Shown here: piece by piece, positions 4,175 through 17,836 of the stretch
How positions within the stretch are numbered: the first letter of the stretch is position 1
Layout: each line of letters begins with the position of its first letter
Origin: an uncultured Thermoanaerobaculia bacterium
GTDB lineage: Bacteria; Acidobacteriota; Thermoanaerobaculia; Multivoradales; Multivoraceae
Assembly: GCA_951812325.1 (NCBI GenBank)
Contig: OX638294.1
Span: forward strand, 3,198,859-3,262,858
Reading direction: 5' to 3'
DNA: 64,000 nucleotides
The notes under the pieces: model-generated
What the model was told of the DNA's origin: nothing
The model's input: only the letters and a program-made list of their open reading frames with translations
The model's database searches: none
Translations under genes and position numbers: made by a program

Positions 4175-5101
4175 TCAGGTGGCCCGTGGGTGATGGCGGT
4201 CGTACAGCGTGCGGAGCCGGTGCTCGTGGATATGGGTGTAGATCTGCGTGGTCGTGATGTTCGCGTGGCCGAGCATCACCTGCACGGCGCGCAGGTCGGC
4301 GCCGTGCTCGAGCAGGTGGGTGGCGAAGCTGTGGCGCAGCACGTGGGGCGACAGGTCGGGGATGCCGGCGCCCCGCCCGTAGTTCCTGAGCAGCTTCCAG
4401 AGTCCCTGCCGGGTCAGTCCGCCGCCGCGATAGCTGACGAAGACAACGTCGTGGCGGCCCTTCGCCATCACCGGCCGCACGTCCCTCAGGTAGCGGTTGA
4501 GCCAGGTCTCGGCCGACTCGCCCACCGGCACGACCCGTTCCTTGGCCCCCTTGCCGAACGCAATGAGGAAGCCCGCGTCGAGCTGGAGCTGGCTCCGTTC
4601 GAGGCCGACCATCTCGCTGACCCGCAGGCCTGTGGCGTAGAGCAACTCGATCATCGCCCGATCCCTCACTCCCGGAGGCCGGCTGGTGTCGGGGGCGCGG
4701 AGCAGAGCCCCGACCTGCTCTTCGCGGAGCACCCTGGGCAACCGACGGGGCAGCCGCGGCGGGTAGAGGTTGACTGCCGGGTTGTCGTCACGGTCGCCCT
4801 CGTGGACGAGGAAGGCGTAGAACCGGCGCATCGAGACCAGGGCGCGACTGATCGAGCGCGGCGACAGCCCCTCAAGGCGCAGTCGCCGCAGGTGACGCGC
4901 GAGCTGCTCCACGGTGGCAGCCAGCAGGTCGCCGCCGTCATCCTCCAGGTTGCTCCTCAGCCGAAGCAGGTCGCGCCGGTAGGCGTCCACCGTATGCCGG
5001 GAGAGGCCCCGCTCGACCAGCAGACCGTCGAGATAGCGGTCCAGTGTCCGCTCACTCCCGGACACCGCGGACGGCCGGCTCGAGGTCTTTGTCGCGGGCA
5101 T
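4175..5101 (-). CDS. xerD: Tyrosine site-specific recombinase XerD
   Basis: Internal ATG of the 870-aa ORF (MPATKTS...). Phage-integrase catalytic region LRHSFATHLLEHGADLRAVQVMLGHANITTTQIYTHI with the XerD-typical C-terminus ...HHPRAT. The upstream part of the long ORF is Arg/Ala-rich and rejected. Confidence 0.85.
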   Translation of the reverse strand: MPATKTSSRPSAVSGSERTLDRYLDGLLVERGLSRHTVDAYRRDLLRLRSNLEDDGGDLLAATVEQLARHLRRLRLEGLSPRSISRALVSMRRFYAFLVHEGDRDDNPAVNLYPPRLPRRLPRVLREEQVGALLRAPDTSRPPGVRDRAMIELLYATGLRVSEMVGLERSQLQLDAGFLIAFGKGAKERVVPVGESAETWLNRYLRDVRPVMAKGRHDVVFVSYRGGGLTRQGLWKLLRNYGRGAGIPDLSPHVLRHSFATHLLEHGADLRAVQVMLGHANITTTQIYTHIHEHRLRTLYDRHHPRAT

Positions 5102-5314
5102 GGGTCGTATGGCCAACAATCTATCAGTCGTGCTGGATACTCGATCATGCCGCTCTGGCCGGCGGCGCCGTTGGTCGGTTGCAGTAGAGATCACCGCTGG
5201 CCCGGCGCCGGTTCTCTGGGTGCGCGGTCCGTTGCGCGCGCCTTTGGCCCCCGATCCGAGCGCAGCGGCGAAGCGGCGAGCGCGAGTCGCGTTGCCCCGC
5301 GCTACGATTCCCCA

Positions 5315-6964
5315 ATGATCAAACGAGCTCTCGCCCTCGCGTTTCCTCTTCTCGCGTTTCTCCTCGGCGCCTGCAGCACACCCGCTCCGCCGCCCGATAC
5401 CGCAACCCAACTCGACACCTGGATCGCCGACCTGGCCGACGACGCGATGGAAGGCCGCGGCCCCGGCACGGCCGGCGACGTGATGGCGCGCCAGTACATC
5501 GCCGACGTGATGGCCGGCATGGGCCTCGAACCCGCGGCCGCCGACGGTAGCTGGGAGCAGCCCTTCGACATCGTCGGCATCGACGCGGCGGTGCCCGAGA
5601 CCTGGACGTTCCACTCCAGCGCCGGCGACAGCGTGGAGTTTGCGTTTTGGGACGAGTTCATCGCGCACAGCGGCGTCCAGTCGGAGCAGGCCGCGATCGA
5701 GAACGCCGAACTCGTGTTCGTCGGCTACGGCATCCAGGCGCCCGAGTACGGCTGGGACGACTACGGCGACGCGGACCTCGCCGGCAAGGTGCTCGTCATG
5801 CTGAACAACGATCCGGACTGGGATCCGGACCTGTTCGAGGGCGACCGCCGCCTCTACTACGGCCGCTGGACGTACAAGTACGAGAGCGCCGCGGCTCAGG
5901 GCGCCGTCGGTGCGATCATCATCCACACGACCCCTTCGGCGGGCTACCCGTTCCAGGTCGTACAGACCTCCTGGACCGGCCCGCAGTTCGAGCTTCCCGC
6001 GGAAGGCGAGGCCCGCACCCGGATCAACGCCTGGCTGACGGAGGAGGCCTCCCGACGGCTCTTCGCGCTGGCCGGCGTCGACTACGACGCGACCCTGGAA
6101 TCGGCCCGGAGCGCCGACTTCGTGCCGGTGCCGCTCGGCCTGTCGACCAGCCTTTCGCTGACGAACACGGTAACCAGCGAGCAGACCGCCAACGTGCTCG
6201 GCGCCCTGCCCGGCAGCGACCCGGAACTGGCCGACGAGTGGGTCGTCTTCACCGCCCACCACGACCACATGGGCATCTCGCCGGACGAGAGCCTGGAGGA
6301 CCGGATCTACAACGGCGCCCTGGACAACGCGGCCGGCGTTGCCCAGGTGCTCGCGGTCGCCGGCGAGCTGGCCGCGCAAGAGCCCGGTCCGAGCAGGTCC
6401 ATCCTGTTCGCCTTCGTCGGCGCCGAGGAGCAGGGACTGCTCGGCTCCGAGTACTACGCCGCTCATCCCACCGTGCCGCCCGGCAAGATGGCCGCGAACA
6501 TCAACTACGACGGCGGCAACCAGTGGGGCCGCACCCGCGACGTGACCTACATCGGCTACGGCAAATCGAGCCTCGACGGTGTCGTCGAAGCGGCCGCGGC
6601 CGAACAGGGCCGCACCGTGCTGCCCGACCAGTTCCCGGCCAACGGCTACTTCTACCGCTCGGACCAGTTGAACTTCGCCCGCATCGGCGTGCCGGCGATT
6701 TACCTGGACAACGGCACCGACTTCATCGACCGCCCCGAAGGCTGGGGCCACGAGCAGCTCAAGGCCTGGACCGAGAACATCTACCACCAGGTCTCCGACG
6801 AGTACGGCGAGGACTGGAACCTCGAAGGCATGGTCGACGACGTCGAACTCGGCCTCGCCTGCGCCCGCGCCATTTCCGAGAACCCCGAACTCCCGTCCTG
6901 GAACCCCGGCGACGAGTTCGAGGCGGCACGGTTGGCGGCGCTGGCCGCCGTGTCGGGCGAGTAG
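5315..6964 (+). CDS. M28-family zinc aminopeptidase lipoprotein with PA domain
   Basis: Starts at internal MIKRALALAFPLLAFLLGACS (lipobox). Has HHDHMG, NGALDNAAGVAQVL and FVGAEEQGLLGSEYY metal-ligand motifs. The 5' part of the track ORF is antisense to xerD and rejected. Confidence 0.8.
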   Translation: MIKRALALAFPLLAFLLGACSTPAPPPDTATQLDTWIADLADDAMEGRGPGTAGDVMARQYIADVMAGMGLEPAAADGSWEQPFDIVGIDAAVPETWTFHSSAGDSVEFAFWDEFIAHSGVQSEQAAIENAELVFVGYGIQAPEYGWDDYGDADLAGKVLVMLNNDPDWDPDLFEGDRRLYYGRWTYKYESAAAQGAVGAIIIHTTPSAGYPFQVVQTSWTGPQFELPAEGEARTRINAWLTEEASRRLFALAGVDYDATLESARSADFVPVPLGLSTSLSLTNTVTSEQTANVLGALPGSDPELADEWVVFTAHHDHMGISPDESLEDRIYNGALDNAAGVAQVLAVAGELAAQEPGPSRSILFAFVGAEEQGLLGSEYYAAHPTVPPGKMAANINYDGGNQWGRTRDVTYIGYGKSSLDGVVEAAAAEQGRTVLPDQFPANGYFYRSDQLNFARIGVPAIYLDNGTDFIDRPEGWGHEQLKAWTENIYHQVSDEYGEDWNLEGMVDDVELGLACARAISENPELPSWNPGDEFEAARLAALAAVSGE

Positions 6965-7034
6965 TGCGCGGCATGGGCGTCGGAAGCGCCCGTCCGCGTC
7001 CGGTCACACAAGCGCGCCGCAGCTCTGCCAGAGA

Positions 7035-7051
7035 GTCCCATGAGTGAAGCC
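7035..7051. repeat. Left arm of a 17-bp perfect inverted repeat (gtcccatgagtgaagcc) covering the CDGSH start codon
   Basis: Exact reverse complement of 7635-7651, read directly from the sequence. Confidence 0.8.
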
Positions 7052-7279
7052 CGTATAGCTGAGCGTGTTCCGGCCAAGATCGAACTCGAAGCCGGCGCCT
7101 ACTGGTGGTGCCGGTGCGGCGAGTCGAAGAACCAACCGTTCTGCGATGGATCCCATCGCGGTACGGACTTTGAGCCGATGCGGCTGACGTTGGAGGAGGA
7201 CCGCCGGGTCGCGCTCTGCCAGTGCAAGCGGAGCGACAAGATGCCGCACTGCGACGGCAGCCACAGGTTCCTGGACTGA
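7040..7279 (+). CDS. CDGSH iron-sulfur domain protein (two CDGSH motifs)
   Basis: 79 aa with WWCRCGESKNQPFCDGSH and CQCKRSDKMPHCDGSH. The start codon is embedded in the left arm of a 17-bp inverted repeat. Confidence 0.75.
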   Translation: MSEARIAERVPAKIELEAGAYWWCRCGESKNQPFCDGSHRGTDFEPMRLTLEEDRRVALCQCKRSDKMPHCDGSHRFLD

Positions 7280-7309
7280 GTCGTCTCGGATAGACCGGGA
7301 CACGCCAGC

Positions 7310-7630
7310 ATGCCAGACTGTCTCTCTCATGCGATACGGAAGGCTCGAATGACGACGGAGAGTTCGATGTTGCACGTCCGGATGGACGCCGAGATGAAGC
7401 GGAAGGCGACGGCAGCGCTCGCAGCGATGGGACTGACGGCTTCGGAGGCCGTGCGGCTGTTGTTTCACCGCATCGCCGTCGATCAGGCCTTCCCGCTCGA
7501 GCTCAAGGTGCCGAACGCGCGGACCCGCCACGCCATGGCCGAGGTGGACGAGATGGTGGAGAAGCGCAGCGCGCGGTTCGCCAGCGCGGACGAGGTGTCT
7601 GCGGAGCTTGAAAAAGCCAGCGTCCGCTAG
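7310..7630 (+). CDS. RelB/DinJ-family type II antitoxin (orphan)
   Basis: MKRKATAALAAMGLTASEAVRLLFHRIAVDQAFPLELKVPNARTRHAM resembles DinJ. The true start is probably Met14 (about 7349). No RelE/YafQ-like toxin ORF follows. Confidence 0.65.
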   Translation: MPDCLSHAIRKARMTTESSMLHVRMDAEMKRKATAALAAMGLTASEAVRLLFHRIAVDQAFPLELKVPNARTRHAMAEVDEMVEKRSARFASADEVSAELEKASVR

Positions 7631-7634
7631 AGCT

Positions 7635-7651
7635 GGCTTCACTCATGGGAC
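7635..7651. repeat. Right arm of the 17-bp inverted repeat (ggcttcactcatgggac), also part of a local hairpin after the dinJ stop
   Basis: Reverse complement of 7035-7051. Locally agctgg...ccagct forms a 6-7 bp stem-loop right after the dinJ stop, followed by a T-containing tract. Confidence 0.8.
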
Positions 7652-7721
7652 CAGCTCCTCTGTCTATTCGAACAGTTCCGCGTGCGTGCCTGCACGCGCC
7701 AAGTAGATGGACCAGTGCCGC

Positions 7722-7868
7722 ATGAGCGACCCTAACTGGAAGAACCGCACTCTCCGGACGGGGCGCGACAATCTTGAAGTCATGCGTGGCCTGAACTCCG
7801 AGTCGGTGGACCTCATCTACCTTGACCGGGGACTAAGTCTCAGGCGCAATTCCTGCGCGAACGCATGA
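7722..7868 (+). pseudogene. 5' fragment of a beta-class N6/N4 DNA methyltransferase (about 33 conserved N-terminal residues, no DPPY motif)
   Basis: My translation MSDPNWKNRTLRTGRDNLEVMRGLNSESVDLIYLD matches the N-termini of CcrM-like N6_N4 MTases (xxGDCLExMxxLPxxSVDLIFADPPY). The ORF then degenerates (RGLSLRRNSCANA*) and stops after 48 codons. Confidence 0.55.
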
Positions 7869-7977
7869 GTCTGCAAAGCACGGTCACTTCCTGGCTGGGG
7901 AGTGGATGAAGAAGAACCTGTAGGCCGTCCTCGAGACCAAGACGGACATCTTCGACAGCGGGACGCGCTCGCGCATC

Positions 7978-8403
7978 ATGGCGAGAGTCCGGAACCGGAA
8001 CACTGGGCCGGAGTTGATCCTGCGCCGGGCGCTCCACGCCCGCGGGCTGCGGTACAAGCTACACGATTCCGCGCTTCCCGGTCGGCCGGATCTCGTCTTT
8101 CCTCGTTTCGGAGCGGTTTGCTTCATGCACGGCTGTTTCTGGCATCGCCACGAAGGCTGTCGCCGCGCGACGACACCGGCGACCAACAGGAGTTCTTGGG
8201 AGCGGAAGTTCGCGGCAAATGTTCGGCGTGACCGGAAGAACCGGATGGCACTGCTTGAGGCCGGCTGGCGTGTCGGGGTGGTCTGGGAGTGCGCTCTACG
8301 CCCCAAGGAGCGCTTGGAGGCGGTGGCAGCGAGTGTTGAGGGATGGCTGAAGGGACAGCGCAAGGAGTTCACAGCCGGTCGCCGGCAGGCTGGCGGGTCA
8401 TAG
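7978..8403 (+). CDS. vsr: Very-short-patch repair endonuclease Vsr
   Basis: 141 aa. LPGRPDLVF...CFMHGCFWHRHEGC...WERKFAANVRRDRKNRMALLEAGWRVGVVWECAL aligns with E. coli Vsr. The D51, H64, H69 and E25 equivalents are present. Confidence 0.85.
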   Translation: MARVRNRNTGPELILRRALHARGLRYKLHDSALPGRPDLVFPRFGAVCFMHGCFWHRHEGCRRATTPATNRSSWERKFAANVRRDRKNRMALLEAGWRVGVVWECALRPKERLEAVAASVEGWLKGQRKEFTAGRRQAGGS

Positions 8404-9576
8404 CCATGCTGGAAGTGCGAGCGGAAGGGCTGAAGACGCGATAGGTAGTGCGGGTAGGCCGTTCCTGGCTCGGGATGGTACGAGGTCGTCGGCGCTGCTT
8501 CTGGCGAGTCCATGCGAGATAAGGTTCCACTTCTTCTTCCCGAGGCATGCCGGCGGTTTCTTCTCAAGTCCCTCAGTCAGCATGTTCAGGACCTCAGGTA
8601 CCTTGGCTTTACGGTCTTCAAAGAACTCCACATGATCGTCTGCGAAGCGGTCGCTCAACCAATGCTTGATTGCGTCGATTCCTGCGGGACACGTTTTGTC
8701 GACTGCGTCGTCCATGATACCGCGAAGTTCGCTGGCGATCTGCCCCACCATGTGCTGTTCTGAATCCGAAGGCTGCGGAAGACATGCGCGGTGCGCAAGA
8801 AAGGCTGGATCAAGGTCCGGTCCGAAGTGTTCCAGTACCCGGTATACGTTCTCCCGGACGGCGGCGAGAGCAGTGAGAACGAGGCTGGGCAGGAGTCCCT
8901 GGGCCATTTCGGCGACGTCGGCGATGAGCCGCTCGGCCAACTCTTCTTCGTTCACAACCGTGTTCAGGGCGTCGGCGCCGGAGCCGGGCTTCCCGTAGAC
9001 GACGATCCGGCACGCTCCGAAGTCGATGCGACCATGGTCGTCTGTCGTCCGAGTCGTTCCATGGGGTGCGTCCAGGTCGTTAAGGCGTTCGGAAATTCGT
9101 CTGCGAATGTCCTGGCGGTCGGGCTCGCCGGTGTAGAACGCGATCAAGCGAAGCCGAGCGGGCTGATCTGCCCGCAGGATACGCTTTAGCAGTGGCAATG
9201 CGGTCGCGCCGCTGGTTCGGCTCAGCCGCCAGTCCAAAATGACGATGTCCGCACGAGCGATGGCTTTGACGAGAGCCTCAAGGTCGTCTTGGTCTCGCGG
9301 GGGCAGTACTACGCCGCAGACCATCCCCTGGCGGGCAAACGACAAGGTGATGGGGTCAACCTTCAGGGGCCGGGACGGACCATGTTGCGGGGCGGCTTGG
9401 GCCGGTGCTTGGCTCGAGGCGCGCTGGTCGGGTGGGGTCAGCCCGCCGTGGACCGGCGTCTCTGCCGGGGCGGAGAGCTCGTCGTCAACGACCACCGCTG
9501 TCAGCAGGAAGCGCCGGACGATCTCTTCACAGTGCTCGCCAAGCGCGTTCGCTTCCGGGGAGCTAGGGTTGGTCAT
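8398..9576 (-). CDS. Receiver (REC) domain protein with about 260-aa C-terminal domain of unknown function
   Basis: Start moved to internal ATG (MTNPSS...), which has an AAGGG ribosome-binding site (RBS) 8 nt upstream and overlaps the last 4 codons of the upstream kinase gene. REC-like motifs: AVVVDDE, ADIVILDWRL (phospho-acceptor Asp), LIAFYTGEP, VVYGKPG. The 3' end overlaps vsr tail-to-tail by 6 nt. Confidence 0.7.
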   Translation of the reverse strand: MTNPSSPEANALGEHCEEIVRRFLLTAVVVDDELSAPAETPVHGGLTPPDQRASSQAPAQAAPQHGPSRPLKVDPITLSFARQGMVCGVVLPPRDQDDLEALVKAIARADIVILDWRLSRTSGATALPLLKRILRADQPARLRLIAFYTGEPDRQDIRRRISERLNDLDAPHGTTRTTDDHGRIDFGACRIVVYGKPGSGADALNTVVNEEELAERLIADVAEMAQGLLPSLVLTALAAVRENVYRVLEHFGPDLDPAFLAHRACLPQPSDSEQHMVGQIASELRGIMDDAVDKTCPAGIDAIKHWLSDRFADDHVEFFEDRKAKVPEVLNMLTEGLEKKPPACLGKKKWNLISHGLARSSADDLVPSRARNGLPALPIASSALPLALPAWL

Positions 9577-12544
9577 CGGTGTCGCCCTTCCGGTCCTTGA
9601 TCGGCGCGATAGCGAACGTCGTGCTCCACTTCGATCCGCGCTCCTCGAGCGCCAGGCCGTAACCAATCTCACGCAGCGTCGCGCGTGCGATGTGCAGCCC
9701 CATGCCGCGGCCCTCCGGCTTTCTGGTGAACCCGATATCGAAGACTTCGTCCCGGTCCCGGGCGTGAATGCCGGGTCCCGTGTCCGAGACGCGGAACGTC
9801 TTCCCGGACCTGTCGAGCTGGATTCGGCGCTCAAGCCGCTCGTTCAAACCCGAGAGCCAGTAGATCGCGTTGTCCACGAGATTGATGAACACAGGATAGA
9901 AGGAAGACGGATAGCCGCGCACGGCCGCGCTGGCGAAGGCGTCGGTCCGGGTCAACTCAACGTGGTGTCTGGCCAGTCGCTGGCCAAAGAGGTTGATCAG
10001 AAAATCGTGAATCTCCCACCCGCGAATGTCCACGGCTTTGCGGTAAAGTCTTCTTTGGAGCGGCGTAAATAGTGTCAGGTACGCGTCGAGATGATCGAAG
10101 CTGCCGCGAATCCCCTGATACAGCGACTTCAGTTCGCGATTCGCATCGGCCCAGGCCTTGAGGCCGCGCAGTCCCGATCGGACCGAACGGATGGCGGCGC
10201 CGAACTCGTGGCTGATGATCTCGATCGCCATGCCTAGCTGAGCGAGCTGAAGGTCGGCGGCAGCCTGTTCCTGGAGTGTGACGTTGCTCTGTTCCACGGC
10301 CTCAAGTTGATCGAGAAGCCAGGAGTCGGCCGTCAAATCGACGGCTTCCAGCTGCGAGCGAACGGCGTCGAGAGTTTTCTTTTCGGTCTCGAGCGCCTCG
10401 CGGATCGGAACTTCCAGATCGGAACGTACGGAAATCAGCTGCTGGTCGTCCAAGTCTGCAAGGTCGCGCCGGTCGAAATCGGCCATTCCGGCGCGAATGG
10501 CATCCTCGACATTCTGCACGCACCGCAGGGCCAGGCTGCGCACATCCTCCGAGATACTCTTCGCTCTCGCGTCTACTTCGCAACGACCCGCCTCCGTTTC
10601 TCTCCTGGCCGATTGACCCAGTTGGTTGAGAGCCGAGTCGATGCGTTCTCGGGCACTAACGTCGACGCCCGCCTTGGTCACTTCCTGCGTGACGACACTC
10701 TCAATGGACGTCCGGAGGTCTCGTATGCCGTCGGCAAGGTTCTGAAACGCTTCCCGGTAGTCGCCCCATTCCCGTTGCAAGGCGCGGCTCAAGCCGATAC
10801 GCGGCTTGGAAACCCGGTAACAGGTCTCCAGCTTCTCGAGATCTCTGCGGGCATTCCGTTCGATCTCTATGATTCGTCTGGCTGCTCGCCCGCGGTCCGT
10901 ATCGAGACTCGCCTCTTTCACTCGTTCCTCGGCCCCCAAGCCCAGTTCCATGGCGCTGTCAAGCGGCTTACTCGTCTCCATTCGCTGGAAGAAGGCCGCA
11001 AGGTCCTTCCTGAACTGGTCGCGCTTGGCGGTGACGGTTCTGGCGCGGGCACGCCTATGGCGCTCGATCTCGTCCAACTCGCGCTTGCGGCTCTTGAACC
11101 GTTCGCCGTACGCTCCCTCCTCCCGGAAGAAGTCGGCGGCCACCTGAACGAGGAAGCTCTTCAGAATGCTCCGCAGTTCACGGTAGGCCTTGTTCTGGCG
11201 GAAGCCCTCTCGCCCCGCCTTCTCGCGAAGACGTGAGTTGTTAACGGAGTCGACTTCAACCACGCCGAACATCTGTCGGTATGAGAAGTAGTAGTAGGAG
11301 GCGCTCTTGGTCCGCCGGAATTCGATTTTCAGCCAGTCGTAGTCGGTGGTCCCGTACGGTTGAATGCGCACGCCGTCCCGATAGATGTAGAGGCCCCCGA
11401 TGCGTCTCGTCTTCTCGAGCATTCGAGCATGCTCCGCCGGAGGAAGAGTGGAATGCCTGGATGCGCCCTCGATTGCGGCGAACCTGATATGGAACGGACC
11501 GCAGGCCGTGGGACGCCCTCTTCCGTCGCGCCAATTGATGACGTGGTCGCTCCTGGTCTCGCCGTAGATGGACACGCTGCCCTTGAACTGGCCATAAGCG
11601 TCGAATCTACCTGAGATCTGATGATCCGCGTTCTCGTAGTCGGAGCGAGTGAAGAACTCGTGCTCGCCGATGAGGTCCTCGCAGGCGCCATCCAGTCTGT
11701 GGTCGCGGAAAGCGGTGCGGATGATGGGCTCCGTGCCAGTCGCGAACGACGGAATGGTAAACCCCAGCAGTGCTTTCTGTAGCGGCGCCGCCGAACGGGA
11801 GGTCGCCTCCCCCGCCATGTCGTGGTCCAGGTCGGCCGATGCTGGCAGAAGGTAGAAGTGCGTACCGTGACCGCCGTCGAGGAGCGACGGCTGGCCCAGG
11901 TGTGCGGCGGTCGCCCGAGGATCAACGGCAAACGCTCCAAGGTCGCCCTTGATCCGGGCCCACTCCTCTTCGTCCATGCGTTTCTGAAGGCCTGCGTTCC
12001 TGTCGAGGAATGACTCCACCATCTCGGCTACGTCCTCGGCGTCGGGCAGGCTGCCTCCGGGAAGAGTGCGTAGCGGAATCCGGATGTCCTGGAGATTCAG
12101 TTCGGGACATTCGAAGACCCGCCAGTTGAGAAAGGCAGCCGTCAGGTCGGACAAGCCGTCGTCGCGAAGGGCGCGTGTGAGCACCAGGACTTGAGGAGCG
12201 ATCGTGGCGATGGCCAGGCGACCGATTCCCTTCTCCCCCAGAATGGGCCTTGCGCCTTGCAGCGGCTGGCGGCGTTGCCGCTCCGTGCGTTTCCGCCGAA
12301 TGCTGGTCTCCGTCGCGATGGTGAGCCATCGGTCGATGAACTCGTCGGTCTGCATGCCGAAGCCGTCGTCGCGCATCACGAACAGCCTGTCGCGGCGGTA
12401 GTAGTCAACTTCCACATGCCTGGCGTCCGCGTCGTGAGCGTTCTTGAACAGTTCGCTAATCGCGGTTGGGATGCCGGCGATCTGCTGTCTCCCCAGCATG
12501 TCCAGCGTTCTCGCCCGGGCCTTGAAGCTAACCTCCGTCGACAT
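9563..12544 (-). CDS. Dual GHKL protein: N-terminal MORC/Hsp90-like ATPase, long coiled-coil middle, C-terminal histidine kinase (HisKA H-box + HATPase_c)
   Basis: Start moved to Met50 (MSTEV...), whose ATG shares one nt with the MTase stop (TGATG). N-terminal ISELFKNAHDADA, RDDGFGM, GEKGIGRLA resemble HATPase_c_3. C-terminal H-box IEIISHEFGAAIRS, N-box FINLVDNAIYW, G1 RVSDTGPGI, G2 GRGMGLHIA. Confidence 0.75.
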   Translation of the reverse strand: MSTEVSFKARARTLDMLGRQQIAGIPTAISELFKNAHDADARHVEVDYYRRDRLFVMRDDGFGMQTDEFIDRWLTIATETSIRRKRTERQRRQPLQGARPILGEKGIGRLAIATIAPQVLVLTRALRDDGLSDLTAAFLNWRVFECPELNLQDIRIPLRTLPGGSLPDAEDVAEMVESFLDRNAGLQKRMDEEEWARIKGDLGAFAVDPRATAAHLGQPSLLDGGHGTHFYLLPASADLDHDMAGEATSRSAAPLQKALLGFTIPSFATGTEPIIRTAFRDHRLDGACEDLIGEHEFFTRSDYENADHQISGRFDAYGQFKGSVSIYGETRSDHVINWRDGRGRPTACGPFHIRFAAIEGASRHSTLPPAEHARMLEKTRRIGGLYIYRDGVRIQPYGTTDYDWLKIEFRRTKSASYYYFSYRQMFGVVEVDSVNNSRLREKAGREGFRQNKAYRELRSILKSFLVQVAADFFREEGAYGERFKSRKRELDEIERHRRARARTVTAKRDQFRKDLAAFFQRMETSKPLDSAMELGLGAEERVKEASLDTDRGRAARRIIEIERNARRDLEKLETCYRVSKPRIGLSRALQREWGDYREAFQNLADGIRDLRTSIESVVTQEVTKAGVDVSARERIDSALNQLGQSARRETEAGRCEVDARAKSISEDVRSLALRCVQNVEDAIRAGMADFDRRDLADLDDQQLISVRSDLEVPIREALETEKKTLDAVRSQLEAVDLTADSWLLDQLEAVEQSNVTLQEQAAADLQLAQLGMAIEIISHEFGAAIRSVRSGLRGLKAWADANRELKSLYQGIRGSFDHLDAYLTLFTPLQRRLYRKAVDIRGWEIHDFLINLFGQRLARHHVELTRTDAFASAAVRGYPSSFYPVFINLVDNAIYWLSGLNERLERRIQLDRSGKTFRVSDTGPGIHARDRDEVFDIGFTRKPEGRGMGLHIARATLREIGYGLALEERGSKWSTTFAIAPIKDRKGDTDDQP

Positions 12545-13647
12545 CAGCTCAAGCGTGCCTCGGCGAGGTGTCTGATGACGTGCTGTCCCACCAGGTTCGT
12601 CAACAGAGAAGGTACGGCGTTCCCAATCTGCCGGGCCATCGAGTTCAGATTGCCGCAGAGGTGAAAATCCATCGGAAATGTCTGAAGACACGCGGCTTCC
12701 CTGACGCTGATCGCACGATCCTGCTCAGGGTGCCCGAAGCGGCCGTTGGAATAGCTGATGCAACGCGTCGTGAGCCCGGAAGCCGGCCGGTCCCAAGACA
12801 TGCGACCGTAGACGTCGGTGTAGCCGGCAGTCTGCTTGTGGCATTCAAGACGAAGGGCCTCCGGCCAATCCCGGTGCCCGCCGCCCTCGGGGGTTGCCCG
12901 GATGCGCTCCAGATTGAGCTCGGACAGTCGAGCGGCGCGGTGGTCGCGGATTGCCGGGTGGGTCTCACCGGCGTCAATCCCCGGCAGGTCGCCTATCCAG
13001 TCGCGCACGGTGGAGAACTCGGGGTTGGCCGCGCCCGGCCCGTGGGTTTTGGGAGGGAGACCCACGGGTCCGTGGCGACTGGCGAGGAGCAGGAATCGGC
13101 GGCGACCCTGCGGCACTCCGTAGTGCTTCAAGGGCACTGAAGTGCAGGTCGGCTTGGGATAGCCCGCCTCCTCCAATCCCTGAAGGAAGTCGCTCAGCGG
13201 TTCAGATTCGGGGCACACATTCTGAATCCCCGGGACATTCTCCACGAAGACGACGTCCGGCTTGCATCTGCGGATGAAGCGCAGGAGCTCAAGAAGCAAG
13301 GGCACCCGTTCGTCTTCTGTGGGCTTGGGACGGCTGGTATTCTGCTTGGTGAAAGGCTGGCAGGGTGCGCATCCGCAGAACAGAATGGGGCGCGGTCGGT
13401 GTTCAACCACCAGCTCGTGGACGGAGCCTTCATCCACATCCCGAATGTCGCTGCGTTCGAAGACGGCCGCTGGGAAGTTGCGCCGGTAGGTTCGCTCGGC
13501 GTCGGCGTCACAATCGAGTCCGAACACGATCTCCATTCCGGCGTCTTGAAAACCGCGGCTGGCCCCGCCGCAACCGGAGAAGAAATCGAAGACCACCGCT
13601 CGCCGCCAAGCCGCGCCGTTCGTGTTGGGATCGTCGAGGGAATTCAT
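12544..13647 (-). CDS. DNA (cytosine-5)-methyltransferase (Dcm-like)
   Basis: 367 aa. Motif I VVFDFFSGCGGASRGF, motif IV GCAPCQPFT, motif VI VFVENVPG, motif VIII QGRRRFLL, motif X NAVPSLLTNLV. Confidence 0.9.
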   Translation of the reverse strand: MNSLDDPNTNGAAWRRAVVFDFFSGCGGASRGFQDAGMEIVFGLDCDADAERTYRRNFPAAVFERSDIRDVDEGSVHELVVEHRPRPILFCGCAPCQPFTKQNTSRPKPTEDERVPLLLELLRFIRRCKPDVVFVENVPGIQNVCPESEPLSDFLQGLEEAGYPKPTCTSVPLKHYGVPQGRRRFLLLASRHGPVGLPPKTHGPGAANPEFSTVRDWIGDLPGIDAGETHPAIRDHRAARLSELNLERIRATPEGGGHRDWPEALRLECHKQTAGYTDVYGRMSWDRPASGLTTRCISYSNGRFGHPEQDRAISVREAACLQTFPMDFHLCGNLNSMARQIGNAVPSLLTNLVGQHVIRHLAEARLS

Positions 13648-13764
13648 GGACGACTCGACTACTGCGAAGAGGTTCCAAGAGGCGGCGAAAGCCTAACAAA
13701 TCGCGACGGAAGCGGGCCTTCGGACGGACGTCCCATCGGCAGATCAGCGCAGGGGCGGAAACCG

Positions 13765-15021
13765 TTAACCTTCAACGATCTCCGCGTCATGCCCGCACCA
13801 CACGAGGCCTGACACGAGCTTCGGCAGGAAGCGGGTCGACTTGGGCGGCAGCAGGTCGCCGTCTTCGGTCGCGAGGGCGAACTGCTTCGGGGTCATCGGC
13901 GGCAGGAAGACGCCGGTGGTGACGGCGCCGCTTTGCAGCAGTTCGATGATGTCTTCCGGGTCGGCTTCGTAGGCGATGCTGCCGTCGGTGGCGGATTCGA
14001 TTGGGACGCCGGCGGTCGTCAGCAGGTGATGGTGGAGCAGGGAGGCCGGCAGGTCGGCCTTGCGTCCGGGCATGTCGGCGGGCGCGGCCGCGGCGTCGAG
14101 GGTCCACAGTTCGGGTGACGGGTCGCCCTGGAACCAGACGGCGAGGGCGGGCTGCGGCGCGGCCGCGACGCGGGCGGCGATGTCCTTGCCGGCGGTCGCT
14201 TCCAGGGTCTCGCGGCGCGCCGGCAGCGCGGACATCGCCTCGCGGTCGACCGGGACGCGGATGCCGCGGTGGACCGGGTCGATCCGGAGGTTCGCGGAGG
14301 CCAGGCTGGTGAGGACGACCATCTTGCACGCCGCGGCGGCGCCGCCCTTTGCCCCCTCCTCGGCGGCGTAGGTCTGGGCGACCTGGGTGCGATGATGGCC
14401 GTCGGCGATCGCGGCGCGGGCGCCCTTGAGCGCCGCGGCGTAGGCGCCGATCCGCTCGGGGTCGGTGATCCGGAAAAGGCTGTGGACGTCGCCGGTCCAC
14501 GGGTCGGTGTGACGGACCAGGGCGTCGCCCGCGGCGCCGCTTGAGTCTTCGCTCAGCAGGCGTTCCAGGACGCCGTCGTCCTCGGCGAGGTAGAACACGG
14601 GCTCGATGTCGATTTGCGTGAGCCGGAGCAGGGCCAGGCGCTCGGCGATCGACTTGGCGACCGTCTGTTCGTGGGGCCGGAGGTCCCCCTCGCGTCCCGG
14701 CTCGACGCCGACCAGGGCGCACAGGCCGAGGCGGCTCGAGCCGTCGGGCCGGGCGATCGCGTACGGGTAAAGCGAGGGAGTCTCGTCGCGCTCGACGACT
14801 CCGTTCTCCAGCCACTCCCGGTGGAGCGCGGCCGCGTGCTCGTGCGGCGTCTCGCCGTCACGCGCCACGGGCTTCGTCACCCGGGAGAACTGGTGCGGCG
14901 ACTGCGCGTGCAGGCGGTCGCGCAGGGTCTCGTCGATCTGGTCGAAGGGCGGCGCCGCCTGAGCTGCGGCATCGAGCCTGGCGGAGTTGTAGCGGTAGCC
15001 CTGGAAGGCGTAGAGCTTCAT
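13765..15021 (-). CDS. DUF1015 family protein
   Basis: 418 aa. N-terminus MKLYAFQGYRYN and conserved IADGHHR, typical of DUF1015. Confidence 0.7.
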   Translation of the reverse strand: MKLYAFQGYRYNSARLDAAAQAAPPFDQIDETLRDRLHAQSPHQFSRVTKPVARDGETPHEHAAALHREWLENGVVERDETPSLYPYAIARPDGSSRLGLCALVGVEPGREGDLRPHEQTVAKSIAERLALLRLTQIDIEPVFYLAEDDGVLERLLSEDSSGAAGDALVRHTDPWTGDVHSLFRITDPERIGAYAAALKGARAAIADGHHRTQVAQTYAAEEGAKGGAAAACKMVVLTSLASANLRIDPVHRGIRVPVDREAMSALPARRETLEATAGKDIAARVAAAPQPALAVWFQGDPSPELWTLDAAAAPADMPGRKADLPASLLHHHLLTTAGVPIESATDGSIAYEADPEDIIELLQSGAVTTGVFLPPMTPKQFALATEDGDLLPPKSTRFLPKLVSGLVWCGHDAEIVEG

Positions 15022-15187
15022 TGCGGCTCCTGGTTGGCGCTGGAGTCTGCCCCCATCGGGGGTTGCATCGGGGTTGCAGCGGGGTTGAAGTGGGAAGACG
15101 GTTGAGCCGGGGCGCCGGGGAACGGTCCGGCTGGTCCCCGATTTCCGGGGCGGTACTCGTCGGTAGCGGGTCGCCGGGGGTTGCGGT

Positions 15188-17836
15188 TCAGGCGGCGCGA
15201 CTGTCGTCGCTTCCGGCTTCGTTTGAACCGGTCGTCGGTCCGGTTCGGATCGAGAGGCTACCGCCTTCCACGTCGATCACAATCCGATCTCCCGCGCCGA
15301 GATCGCCGCCGACCAGGGCGCGTCCCAGGCGGGTCTCGACCTCGCGCTGAAGGTAGCGCTTGAGCGGCCGGGCGCCGTAGACGGGGTCGTATCCGGCGCG
15401 GGCCGTGAACTCGCGCGCCGCCGGGGTCAGTTCGAGCCCGATCCCCTGGTCGCCGAGGCGCTGCTCGAGGTCGGCCGTCAGCAGGCCGACGATCTGCTCG
15501 ATCTCCGACACGGTGAGCGGCGAGAACAGGACGACCTCGTCGATCCGGTTGAGGAACTCGGGCCGGAAGCTGCGGCGCAGCTCGGCCATCACGGCGTCCC
15601 GGGCCGCGTCCGTGATCTCGCCCGCCGGCGTGACGCCTTCCAGCAGGCGGGGAGAACCCAGGTTGGAGGTCATGATGACGACCGTGTTCTTGAAGTTGAC
15701 GGTGCGTCCCTGGGAGTCGGTGATCCGACCGTCGTCCAGAATCTGCAGGAGCACGTTGAACACGTCGCGGTGCGCCTTCTCGATCTCGTCGAACAGGACG
15801 ACCGCGTACGGCTTGCGCCTTACCGCCTCGGTCAGCTGCCCTCCGTCCTCGTGGCCGACGTAGCCGGGCGGCGCCCCGACCAGGCGCGAGACGGTGTGCC
15901 GCTCCATGTACTCGCTCATGTCGAGGCGGACCATGTTGTCCTCGGTGTCGAAGAGCGCCTCCGCCAGCGTCTTGGCGAGTTCCGTCTTGCCGACGCCGGT
16001 GGGGCCGAGGAAGAGGAAGGAGCCGATCGGGCGCCGCGGATCCTTGATTCCCGACCGGGCGCGGATCACCGCGTCGGCCACCAGGCCTACTGCTTCGTTT
16101 TGGCCGATCACCCGGCGGTGCAGGATCTCGTCGAGACGCAGCAGCTTCTCGCGCTCGCCCTCGACCAGGCGGGTGACCGGGACGCCGGTCCACCTGGACA
16201 CGATCTCCGCGATCTCGTGGTCGGTCACCTCTTCCCGCAGCAGGCGGCCCGAGGCGTCGGCCGCGCCTTCCGCCTGCTCCTGGCTCTCGAGCTTCGCGCT
16301 CAACTCCGGGAGCACGCCGTGCCGCAGCTCGGCGGCCCGGTTCAGGTCGTAGTGGCGTTCGGCGACCTCGATCTCGCGCCGCACCTGTTCGATCTGCTCG
16401 CGCACCTTCCGCTCGTCGTCGATTGCCGCCTTCTCGCTCTCCCACTGGCTGCGCATCGCCGCGTCGCGGGTCCGCAGGTCGGCGAGTTCACGTCTGAGCG
16501 TCTGCAGGCGCGCCTGGCTCGACTTGTCGGTTTCCTTGGTCAGCGCCGCCTCCTCGATCTCGAGCCGCATGACGCGGCGGGTCACTTCGTCGAGTTCGGC
16601 CGGCAGGGAGTCGATCTCCGTGCGGATCAGGGCGCCCGCTTCGTCGACCAGGTCGAGCGCCTTGTCGGGCAGGAACCGGTCCGAGACGTAGCGGTCCGAG
16701 AGGGTGGCTGCGGCGACCAGCGCGTTGTCCTGGATCCGTACGCCGTGGTGGACCTCGAAGCGTTCGCGCAGGCCGCGCAGGATGGACACCGTGTCCTCCA
16801 CCGACGGCGCATCGACCAGAATCGGCTGGAACCGCCGCTCGAGGGCAGCGTCCTTCTCGATGTACCTGCGGTACTCGTCCAGGGTGGTGGCGCCGATGCA
16901 ATGGAGTTCGCCGCGCGCGAGCATCGGCTTGAGCAGATTGCCGGCGTCGGTGGAGCCTTCGGTGCGGCCGGCGCCGACGATGTTGTGAACCTCGTCGATG
17001 AACAGCAGGATGCGTCCCTCGCTTTGGGCGATCTCGGTCAGCACGGCCTTCAACCGCTCCTCGAACTCGCCGCGGTACTTGGCGCCGGCAAGCAGCGCCC
17101 CGAGGTCGAGCGAGAAGACGCTGCGGTCCTTGAGCCATTCGGGCACGTCGCCGCGGACGATGCGCCCTGCCAGTCCCTCGACGATGGCCGTCTTGCCGAC
17201 GCCCGGTTCGCCGATCAGCACCGGGTTGTTCTTGCGTCTGCGGGAGAGGATGCGGATCGCTCGGCGGATCTCCGAATCGCGCCCGATGACCGGGTCCATC
17301 TTGCCGGCCCGCGCCTGAGCGACCAGGTCGACACCGTACTTCTCGAGGGCCTCGTACGAGGCTTCCGGATTGTTGCTGGTCACACGCTGGGCGCCGCGCA
17401 GGGTCTTGAGCGTTTCCAGGAGCTGCGGCCGAGAGAGGCCGGCGTCGGCCAGGGCCCTGGCGGCGCCGTCCCTGCCTTCGGCTGCCGCGAGCAGCAGATG
17501 CTCGACCGACACGTAGTCGTCGCCGAGCGCCCCGGCCTCGTCTTCTGCCCGGATCAGGAGCTGCTGCAGGTCGGTCGTGACGTAGAGCTTGCCGAGTTCG
17601 TCCGCGCCGCCGGTGACCTTCGGCTTGCGCTCGAGGTCGGCCCGGAGTCTTGCGCCGAGTGTGGCCGCGTTGATGTCGAGGCGCTGGAGCAGCCGGGGCG
17701 TCAGACCGTCGTGCTGGTCGAGCAGAGCGAGCAGCAGATGCTCGCTGTCAACCTGTTGGTGGCCGAGACGCCGCGCCCGGTCCTGGGCGCCGGTCAGAGC
17801 TTCCTGGGACTTGATCGTCAGCTTGTTCGGGTCCAT
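15188..17836 (-). CDS. clpB: Chaperone ClpB (AAA+ disaggregase)
   Basis: 882 aa. Two AAA modules ([15 protein letters not shown]; [16 protein letters not shown]), middle coiled-coil, Clp N-domain. Confidence 0.95.

Follow-up and report, generated by a model that had tools for sequence, protein, structure and literature searches.

A methylase-linked HEF_HK/Response_reg_2 cassette in an uncultured Acidobacteriota bacterium lacks the predicted toxin-fold domain of its receiver protein

The 64,000-nt stretch of contig OX638294.1 from an uncultured Thermoanaerobaculia bacterium that was analysed here (hereafter, the window; coordinates are positions in it unless another locus is named) contains a cassette of four genes, which encode a Dcm-like methylase, a histidine kinase, a receiver protein and the very-short-patch repair endonuclease Vsr. 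The genes were taken from a list of open reading frames (ORFs) and their junctions were read directly. On the minus strand, dcm (12544-13647, 367 aa) is the first gene of an operon and is followed by the kinase gene (9563-12544, 993 aa) and the receiver gene (8398-9576, 392 aa counted from the ATG), and vsr (7978-8403, 141 aa) lies on the plus strand, convergent with the operon. In gagcTGATGtcg, the stop codon of the methylase gene (TGA) and the start codon of the kinase gene (ATG) have one base in common, i.e. 12544, and in accgATGaccaaccctag, the receiver gene starts with its ATG at 9576, i.e. 14 nt within the kinase gene. Both minus-strand overlaps are also kept in L001, a syntenic locus from Candidatus Multivorans. 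Finally, the receiver gene and vsr overlap tail-to-tail by 6 nt (tcatag) at 8398-8403 (ggtcatag). The coordinates of the four genes and of their overlaps are those given in an earlier note, which had been made from the sequence alone, and the gene complement and operon structure described there were correct. A scan of the window for promoters and terminators gave nothing above chance.

The dcm product is a C5 cytosine DNA methyltransferase that matches the Pfam family PF00145 (DNA_methylase, 4.8e-45) over nearly the full length as well as TIGR00675 (8.7e-35) and the PADLOC model MTase_II (2.9e-82). The translation contains the motifs FxGxG, PCQ, ENV, QxRxR and GNAVP and is 90.5% identical to the L001 orthologue; the methylase gene appears intact. 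Similarly, Vsr matches PF03852 (1.1e-22), TIGR00632 (6e-34) and the PADLOC model Vsr (3e-30). Its tail is five codons longer than in the L001 and L004 orthologues because an in-frame TAG is absent, and vsr also appears intact.

The kinase is a soluble protein with a paraMORC-type GHKL ATPase module at the N terminus (residues 27-126; PF13589, HATPase_c_3, 4e-15), a conserved middle region (residues ~140-475), a coiled region, the HEF_HK DHp domain (residues 769-835; PF19191, 1.4e-27, 96 bits against a cut-off of 24 bits) and a C-terminal HATPase_c domain (residues 880-970; PF02518, 1.6e-14). Moreover, residues 753-983 match the kinase core of ZraS (PDB 9jfj, 2e-8). Based on the two ATPase domains and the ZraS match, the earlier description of a dual-GHKL histidine kinase was correct. 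Among the Pfam families predicted for the cassette, PF00145, PF13589, PF02518 and PF03852 were found above their thresholds; PF00512 and PF00072 were not, and the divergent families PF19191 and PF19192 were found instead. The kinase N terminus also matches the BbrUII/HgiDII restriction-enzyme family NF050001 of NCBIfam over its first ~115 residues (5.8e-22), although this match is confined to the first 115 of the 659 positions in the profile and reaches 78 bits against a cut-off of 550 bits, and it matches the PADLOC model REase_II (9e-11).

The window kinase retains each of the 148 residues found to be invariant in 29 intact homologues. H779-E780-F781 as well as N888/N892 and G945/G947/G949 in the catalytic domain are invariant and present, i.e. 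the His and the N, G1 and G2 boxes of a classical kinase core, as are E31, N35, D38, D59-G61-G63 and G103-G108 of the N-terminal GHKL motifs. In total, the kinase gene appears intact. The middle region (~140-475) is rich in family-invariant residues (e.g. D307-H308, R393-x2-P396-Y-G and E441-K-x-G-R-E-G447). No Pfam family covers this region, which may serve the sensor as S5/transducer and DNA-contacting part. The PF19191 family is without the T/N phosphatase motif at position H+4 (bioRxiv 10.64898/2026.02.27.708494), and the sequence at the phospho-accepting His of the window kinase is H-E-F-G-A. The absence of this motif would fit a one-way trigger.

The receiver protein has a receiver (REC-like) domain (residues 23-199, 8980-9510 on the minus strand; PF19192, Response_reg_2, 5.1e-35) that retains the family-invariant residues, i.e. 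the acidic pair D31/D32, the phospho-acceptor D115, T149 and K196. This domain is followed by a middle domain (residues ~200-363, 8488-8979 on the minus strand), which is helical in a full-length model, at low confidence, and in which the invariants G227, R241, LDPAFL.HR and W306 are unchanged. The last position with homology to full-length relatives is 8488. From there, the minus-strand frame reads through ~30 codons (8398-8487, tail ...DLVPSRARNGLPALPIASSALPLALPAWL), which lie in what used to be spacer and antisense to the 3' end of vsr and extend to the first stop codon. This tail has no counterpart among 333 receiver homologues. Almost all of these homologues are 528-558 aa long, and the window protein with its 392 aa forms a singleton cluster.

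In tblastn, residues 1-367 of the 537-aa homologue P0002 aligned to 9576-8488 with 78% identity, and its last 170 residues had no match elsewhere in the window. In blastn, window positions 13715-8487 correspond to L001 positions 5857-11102 and window positions 8475-7943 to L001 positions 11668-12198. Read base by base, the junction consists of an 11-nt filler (8476-8486) that replaces ~565 nt of L001 (11103-11667), i.e. receiver codons ~368-537, which comprise the entire predicted MazF/CcdB-fold domain described below, and 53 nt of spacer. We conclude that the receiver gene in the window is truncated by a ~0.55-kb deletion that removed the toxin-like output domain. In L001, the receiver gene and vsr are separated by 139 nt, and the 6-nt overlap in the window exists because the deletion drove the receiver frame into the antisense of vsr. 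Thus, this overlap, which the earlier note had listed with the translational couplings, is a by-product of the truncation. The 260-aa C-terminal domain reported there resolves into a truncated remnant, i.e. ~160 aa of middle helical domain, and ~30 aa of unrelated read-through. Moreover, the REC-linked effector that had been proposed is not present in this copy, since homology ends at residue 367 and the L001 alignment shows that the conserved C-terminal domain, the putative effector, is deleted.

Intact receiver proteins consist of the receiver domain, the helical middle domain and a conserved C-terminal domain of ~175 aa (C-domain), which in P0002 spans residues 362-537. In alignments of full-length relatives, the C-domain has the invariant or near-invariant pattern LG(T/S)..., C-x2-P-x-C-D-x2-R, F.F(L)PL, W..[E/D/Q]-L-K...AQ and SEWLRR; the same motifs are present in a distant receiver protein from Pantoea, and all invariant residues are absent from the window receiver protein. 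The C-domain of a homologue was modelled alone with AlphaFold from a 57-sequence alignment (pLDDT 89.6, pTM 0.83). In a Foldseek search with this model, the top 14 matches were all MazF chains (probability 0.93-1.0), and the modelled fold is the SH3-like barrel of the MazF/CcdB/Kid toxin superfamily. Foldseek with a model of the full-length receiver protein (pLDDT 66) was uninformative and returned only flavodoxin-like or receiver-type noise. A profile search of 1.84 billion proteins with the C-domain gave 1615 cluster representatives. Among the best 150 of these 1615 representatives, the C-domain was at the extreme C terminus in all 150, in proteins of 500-606 aa, and all ten full-length matches that were sampled start with PF19192. 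We also considered the C-domain as a PD-(D/E)xK nuclease based on an invariant D...E-x-K, and rejected this reading: distant members have Q or D at the acidic position, and the predicted fold is the MazF/CcdB beta-barrel. In total, we find that the conserved C-domain is predicted to have the MazF/CcdB/Kid toxin fold. Its biochemical activity could be that of an RNase, a gyrase poison or something else. No antitoxin gene was found in the cassettes of L001 and the Pantoea pML.8a3 trio.

The system to which these proteins belong has been described computationally. Bellieny-Rabelo, Pretorius & Moleleki (2021, Genome Biol Evol, PMC8011034) defined HEF_HK (PF19191) / Response_reg_2 (PF19192) as a 'two-component-like' system in which the kinase and receiver genes are linked in 91.6% of cases across 644 regions. 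In their study, the predominant kinase architecture is HATPase_c_3, HEF_HK and HATPase_c (group 1), a C5 methylase gene is typically upstream and Vsr is most often encoded immediately downstream of the receiver gene. The authors proposed an evolutionary link to paraMORC ATPases and, based on 628 genomes, reported a statistical enrichment of restriction-modification (R-M) domains in the neighbourhood of the receiver gene. Beyond the receiver domain, they detected no domain in the receiver protein, and they speculated that the pair might regulate R-M systems. Thus, the novelty that the earlier note had claimed for the gene complement does not stand: the study of 2021 had already reported the same order, with Vsr downstream of the receiver gene, and PF19191 and PF19192 are Pfam families. 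Based on its sequence, we regard the cassette as a member of this known, computationally described family and not as new. A full-length receiver protein of ~520-600 aa with a C-domain is a feature of the family that was established here and not in PMC8011034, and it is this feature that the window copy lacks.

A scan of one genome per species gave 64 loci. In tblastn with the window proteins, the genes for Dcm, kinase and receiver are co-linear in this order with near-identical spacing in ~50 of the 64, which come from Acidobacteriota, Gemmatimonadota, Rhodothermales, Opitutales, Latescibacterota, Nitrospirales, Gammaproteobacteria, Bacteroidota and Desulfobacterota. The conserved gene neighbourhood that the earlier note had asked for was therefore found, with the methylase-kinase-receiver linkage kept across many phyla. 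The order dcm, kinase, receiver and Vsr is the same in L001-L006 and in other loci; over all loci, the Vsr gene is either downstream, where it can be convergent or co-directional, or upstream and co-directional, and in some loci it is absent. A megaplasmid of Pantoea dispersa has the three-gene core only, with transport genes around it and no nuclease or Vsr gene nearby. Across phyla, methylase identity is 60-75% versus 35-40% for the receiver protein. Many of the loci with the cassette (L012-L015, L024, L028, L035, L037 and L039) presumably come from sponge-associated metagenome bins, as read from their isolate labels (SB0672, COS4, APA, RHO and CAR); together with the high methylase conservation, this suggests recent horizontal spread within that habitat. 

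The search of a defence catalogue, which had also been suggested, did not recover the cassette as a defence system: the only PADLOC matches are to MTase, Vsr and, for the kinase N terminus, REase_II, and no PADLOC model matches the kinase core or the receiver protein, either as the window copy or as full-length P0002. Moreover, no nuclease family of Pfam, NCBIfam or PADLOC was found in the C-terminal two-thirds of the kinase or in the receiver protein. Two candidates from the literature were set aside, i.e. the methylation-associated system MADS, which is unrelated, and the WASA Vibrio paper, which covers only paraMORC3/Shedu.

On the window branch, dN/dS is 0.15 for dcm, 0.22 for the kinase gene, 0.26 for the receiver remnant and 0.15 for vsr, i.e. 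the same as on the sister branches, and relaxed selection after the deletion, tested by dN/dS on the window branch, was not visible. On these estimates, purifying selection acts on the methylase, the kinase, the receiver core and Vsr, all of which remain intact. Because the remaining genes are without relaxed selection, the deletion is probably recent.

Cassettes in relatives have also been interrupted. In L003, which is another Candidatus Multivorans genome, an ISL3-like transposase gene (408 aa, 5035-6261 of that locus) splits the kinase gene at 4789-6284; this insertion is an independent inactivation of the cassette. In L052, from a Candidatus Azophilus genome, the receiver ORF (8001-9293 of that locus) stops just past the LGTVV strand of the C-domain, and no C..P.CD or SEWLR motif was found downstream in any frame. 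We take L052, from its sequence, as a second independent loss of the predicted toxin-fold domain. Frameshifts are present in the cassettes of L050, L056, L032 and L064, some of which may be sequencing errors in metagenome-assembled genomes (MAGs).

The cassette lies in an island of ~6.4 kb in the DNA of a high-GC bacterium, flanked by a DUF1015 gene on one side and a zf-CDGSH gene on the other. The lower GC content that had been remarked on in the earlier note was borne out (0.60-0.64 over 7000-13500 vs 0.69-0.74 on either side). The nearest relatives are MAGs of Candidatus Multivorans (Acidobacteriota). In L001, which equals L002, the island is at the same site in the order ClpB - DUF1015 - island - zf-CDGSH and has a copy of the DUF1015 3' end on each side as a 385-nt direct repeat (5272-5656 and 12831-13215 of L001, 88.6% identical), reminiscent of the target duplication that an integrated element leaves. 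In L002, the intact cassette spans OZ253534.1:1649972-1655659 from dcm to the receiver gene. The L001 island contains no integrase gene, and the distal copy of the 385-nt repeat is missing in the window. The GC content and the direct repeat fit the acquired island that had been proposed, and we conclude from these sequence features that the island was horizontally acquired.

The window differs from L001 between vsr and the zf-CDGSH gene. A segment that is absent from L001 contains an orphan RelB/DinJ-type antitoxin gene (7310-7630, plus strand; Pfam RelB, 1.9e-14), and no toxin ORF adjoins relB in the ORF list. A perfect 17-nt inverted repeat (7035-7051 and 7635-7651; GTCCCATGAGTGAAGCC and GGCTTCACTCATGGGAC) brackets the zf-CDGSH and relB genes, with the start codon of the zf-CDGSH gene inside the left arm; this arrangement suggests that an inversion or duplication once had its breakpoint directly behind relB, at the expected place of a toxin gene. 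Apart from this repeat, the repeats in 6800-15200 are short and resemble chance matches. The ORF at 7707-7868 on the plus strand is possibly the N-terminal remnant of an N4/N6 DNA methyltransferase: it weakly matches the N termini of PADLOC MTase_II models (E 0.003 and 0.013) and ends with ...SVDLIYLD (...NLEVMRGLNSESVDLIYLD), just before the expected DPPY motif, and has no match in Pfam or PDB. Thus, of the flanking features listed in the earlier note, the orphan antitoxin and the inverted repeat were found, and the methylase pseudogene is weakly supported. No tRNA genes or Rfam families were found in the window; therefore, there is no tRNA-type integration site. Altogether, the flanks are consistent with a defence hotspot that undergoes rearrangement. 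About 2 kb away from the edge of the island, at 4175-5100, the C-terminal part of a long minus-strand ORF resembles a tyrosine recombinase of the XerD type; this ORF is probably the housekeeping xerD, and a long antisense ORF of the kind that is typical in high-GC DNA overlaps it.

Altogether, we consider it rather probable that the window contains a decayed HEF_HK/Response_reg_2 cassette of a family whose intact members are methylation-linked phospho-relays that release a toxin-fold domain. The earlier suggestion that a self-marking methylase is linked to a phospho-relay fits the evidence. In an intact member, the methylase would mark a short target sequence on host DNA and Vsr would repair the T:G mismatches that arise from 5-methylcytosine deamination. 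The paraMORC ATPase module and the conserved middle region of the kinase would form a cytoplasmic DNA sensor, in which unmethylated target DNA, from an invader or after a loss of methylation, would turn on autophosphorylation at H779. The phosphoryl group would then move from H779 to D115 of the receiver domain, and phosphorylation would release the C-terminal toxin-fold domain to cause a growth stop or the destruction of nucleic acid. The outcome would be abortive-infection-like or addiction-like rather than classical site-specific restriction. In the window, the output domain is gone; therefore, the relay has nothing to release. Thus, this copy is probably no longer armed, and the locus now probably behaves like an orphan Dcm-Vsr pair next to a sensor kinase that has been stranded. 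A putative role of the cassette in defence is plausible.

Several points weigh against this interpretation. No experimental study of any HEF_HK/Response_reg_2 member was found in the literature, and the sensing of unmethylated DNA, phosphotransfer and toxicity are all inferred. The toxin-fold call comes from one AlphaFold model of a homologue and from fold similarity only, and sequence profiles gave no significant match between the C-domain and solved structures, E. coli MazF or CcdB. When secondary structures were mapped by eye, the positions of the catalytic Arg and Thr of MazF were not conserved, and the C-domain has an invariant set of its own (C..P.CD..R, [E/D/Q]-L-K, AQ and SEWLRR); the predicted SH3-like barrel could simply bind a partner. 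For the window itself, the sequence may be metagenome-assembled, and the junction could thus, in principle, be an assembly artefact. Finally, the truncated receiver might keep some function, as there is no excess of amino-acid changes in its remainder.

Among other explanations, the cassette could be a true restriction system, in which the C-domain, alone or together with the paraMORC ATPase, cleaves unmethylated DNA in an ATP- and phosphorylation-gated form of R-M. We regard this as unlikely. The linkage to a C5 methylase is tight, the minimal three-gene cassettes are without any other nuclease, and the C-domain has an invariant Asp, Lys, Glu and Arg; however, its predicted fold is that of MazF/CcdB toxins and no known DNase fold, and the PD-(D/E)xK reading failed on the acidic residue, which is Q in some members, and on the beta-barrel. 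The N terminus of the kinase is homologous to the N terminus of the BbrUII/HgiDII restriction enzymes, and in R-M operons, paraMORCs typically occur together with nucleases (Iyer, Abhiman & Aravind 2008, PMC2292703), but no nuclease family in Pfam, NCBIfam or PADLOC matches the proteins.

Alternatively, the cassette could be a selfish addiction module, which stabilises the island and is not directed against phages: upon loss of the island and of methylation, the kinase would sense newly unmethylated host DNA and release the toxin. R-M systems are known to act in this way, as discussed in PMC8011034, and the island is mobile and foreign in composition, the family is wide and patchy across phyla with an unusually conserved methylase (60-75% identity), and the output domain has a predicted toxin fold. 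This explanation uses the same machinery as the defence model, and sequence cannot tell the two apart; the frequent decay of the toxin or the kinase with the methylase kept shows, however, that hosts escape easily, and we consider it doubtful. 

We find it improbable that the kinase and the receiver form a regulatory two-component system that controls the expression or activity of neighbouring R-M genes and is not itself an effector, as suggested in PMC8011034. The receiver protein is without a DNA-binding output domain and its conserved output is instead the predicted toxin-fold domain, many loci offer nothing to regulate but the co-transcribed methylase, and the three overlapping genes are evidently one operon; these observations stand against the enrichment of R-M domains around the receiver gene in the 628 genomes and against the canonical residues in the core of the kinase and in the receiver. 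That the 392-aa receiver is not a broken gene and functions as a short variant, e.g. as a phosphate sink or as a regulator that acts via the helical domain, is very improbable: it keeps the receiver and middle-domain invariants, its ORF is still translationally coupled to the kinase gene and the dN/dS of its retained part (0.26) is no higher than in sister lineages, but it is a singleton in a family in which complete genes essentially always have the C-domain (333 homologues and 1615 domain representatives), its tail is read-through of the former spacer and antisense vsr, and a recent deletion explains the low dN/dS equally.

Returning to the interpretation as a decayed cassette of a methylation-linked phospho-relay family, the window locus should be annotated as a decayed HEF_HK/Response_reg_2 cassette and not as a new defence system. 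For the family, which comprises at least 1600 sequence clusters from many phyla, the predicted toxin-fold output domain offers a first concrete, testable idea of function and speaks against the transcriptional or regulatory role that had been suggested in print. The window deletion, the insertion in L003 and the truncation in L052 are natural loss-of-function alleles, which hint that the armed system is costly. Moreover, the family is a tractable case for how a bacterial GHKL/MORC-type ATPase might couple the sensing of DNA methylation to signalling, with relevance to eukaryotic MORCs. Only tentatively do we propose that the intact family forms a novel class of immune or addiction system gated by methylation: a paraMORC-kinase would read methylation and a His-Asp relay would free a tethered MazF/CcdB-fold toxin. 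If so, the logic of R-M, two-component signalling and toxin-antitoxin effectors would be joined in one three-gene operon, and the recurrent loss of the toxin or the sensor with retention of the methylase would reflect a cost to the host.

Compared with known systems, the cassette is closest to the HEF_HK/Response_reg_2 system of PMC8011034. The window kinase is soluble and has the same group 1 architecture, the Response_reg_2 gene is adjacent, the C5 methylase gene is upstream and Vsr is encoded immediately downstream of the receiver gene; by contrast, the window copy is without the last third of the receiver protein. The previous study reported no domain past the receiver domain and suggested a regulatory role, whereas our analysis points to a C-domain with a predicted MazF/CcdB fold and thus to an effector role. 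What is new here relative to that study is this predicted effector domain in intact relatives and its deletion in the window.

With the BbrUII/HgiDII enzymes (NF050001) and the paraMORC R-M operons (PMC2292703), the cassette has in common a homologous N-terminal GHKL module (5.8e-22 over ~110 residues) and the partnership with a C5 methylase and Vsr. In those systems, the ATPase is fused to a nuclease or encoded in an operon with one, whereas here it is fused to a histidine-kinase core and the output would depend on a receiver protein encoded by a gene of its own. Pfam, NCBIfam and PADLOC searches did not find, beside the methylase, the cognate endonuclease of recognised nuclease fold that a type II R-M system would have. 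As in a Dcm-Vsr pair, both genes are present and apparently intact, and this pair is probably the part of the locus that still functions, but here the pair is embedded in the cassette and separated by the kinase and receiver genes.

The type II toxins of MazEF, CcdAB and Kid-Kis and the type III toxin of CptIN have no detectable sequence similarity to the C-domain, in which their canonical catalytic residues are not evidently conserved. These systems have an antitoxin; the HEF_HK cassettes are without an antitoxin gene, and control would come from the covalently attached receiver domain. In the window, the C-domain is gone. 

Finally, the cassette resembles the anti-phage two-component-like system Detocs (DtcABC) in that a kinase-like sensor in the cytoplasm would phosphorylate a receiver domain to which a cell-damaging effector is fused. 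Detocs has a buffer receiver protein, which the cassette does not, and its effector is a nucleoside phosphorylase, whereas that of the cassette family has a predicted MazF/CcdB fold. Unlike in Detocs, the putative sensor of the cassette is a paraMORC ATPase, and the methylase would supply the self-marking.

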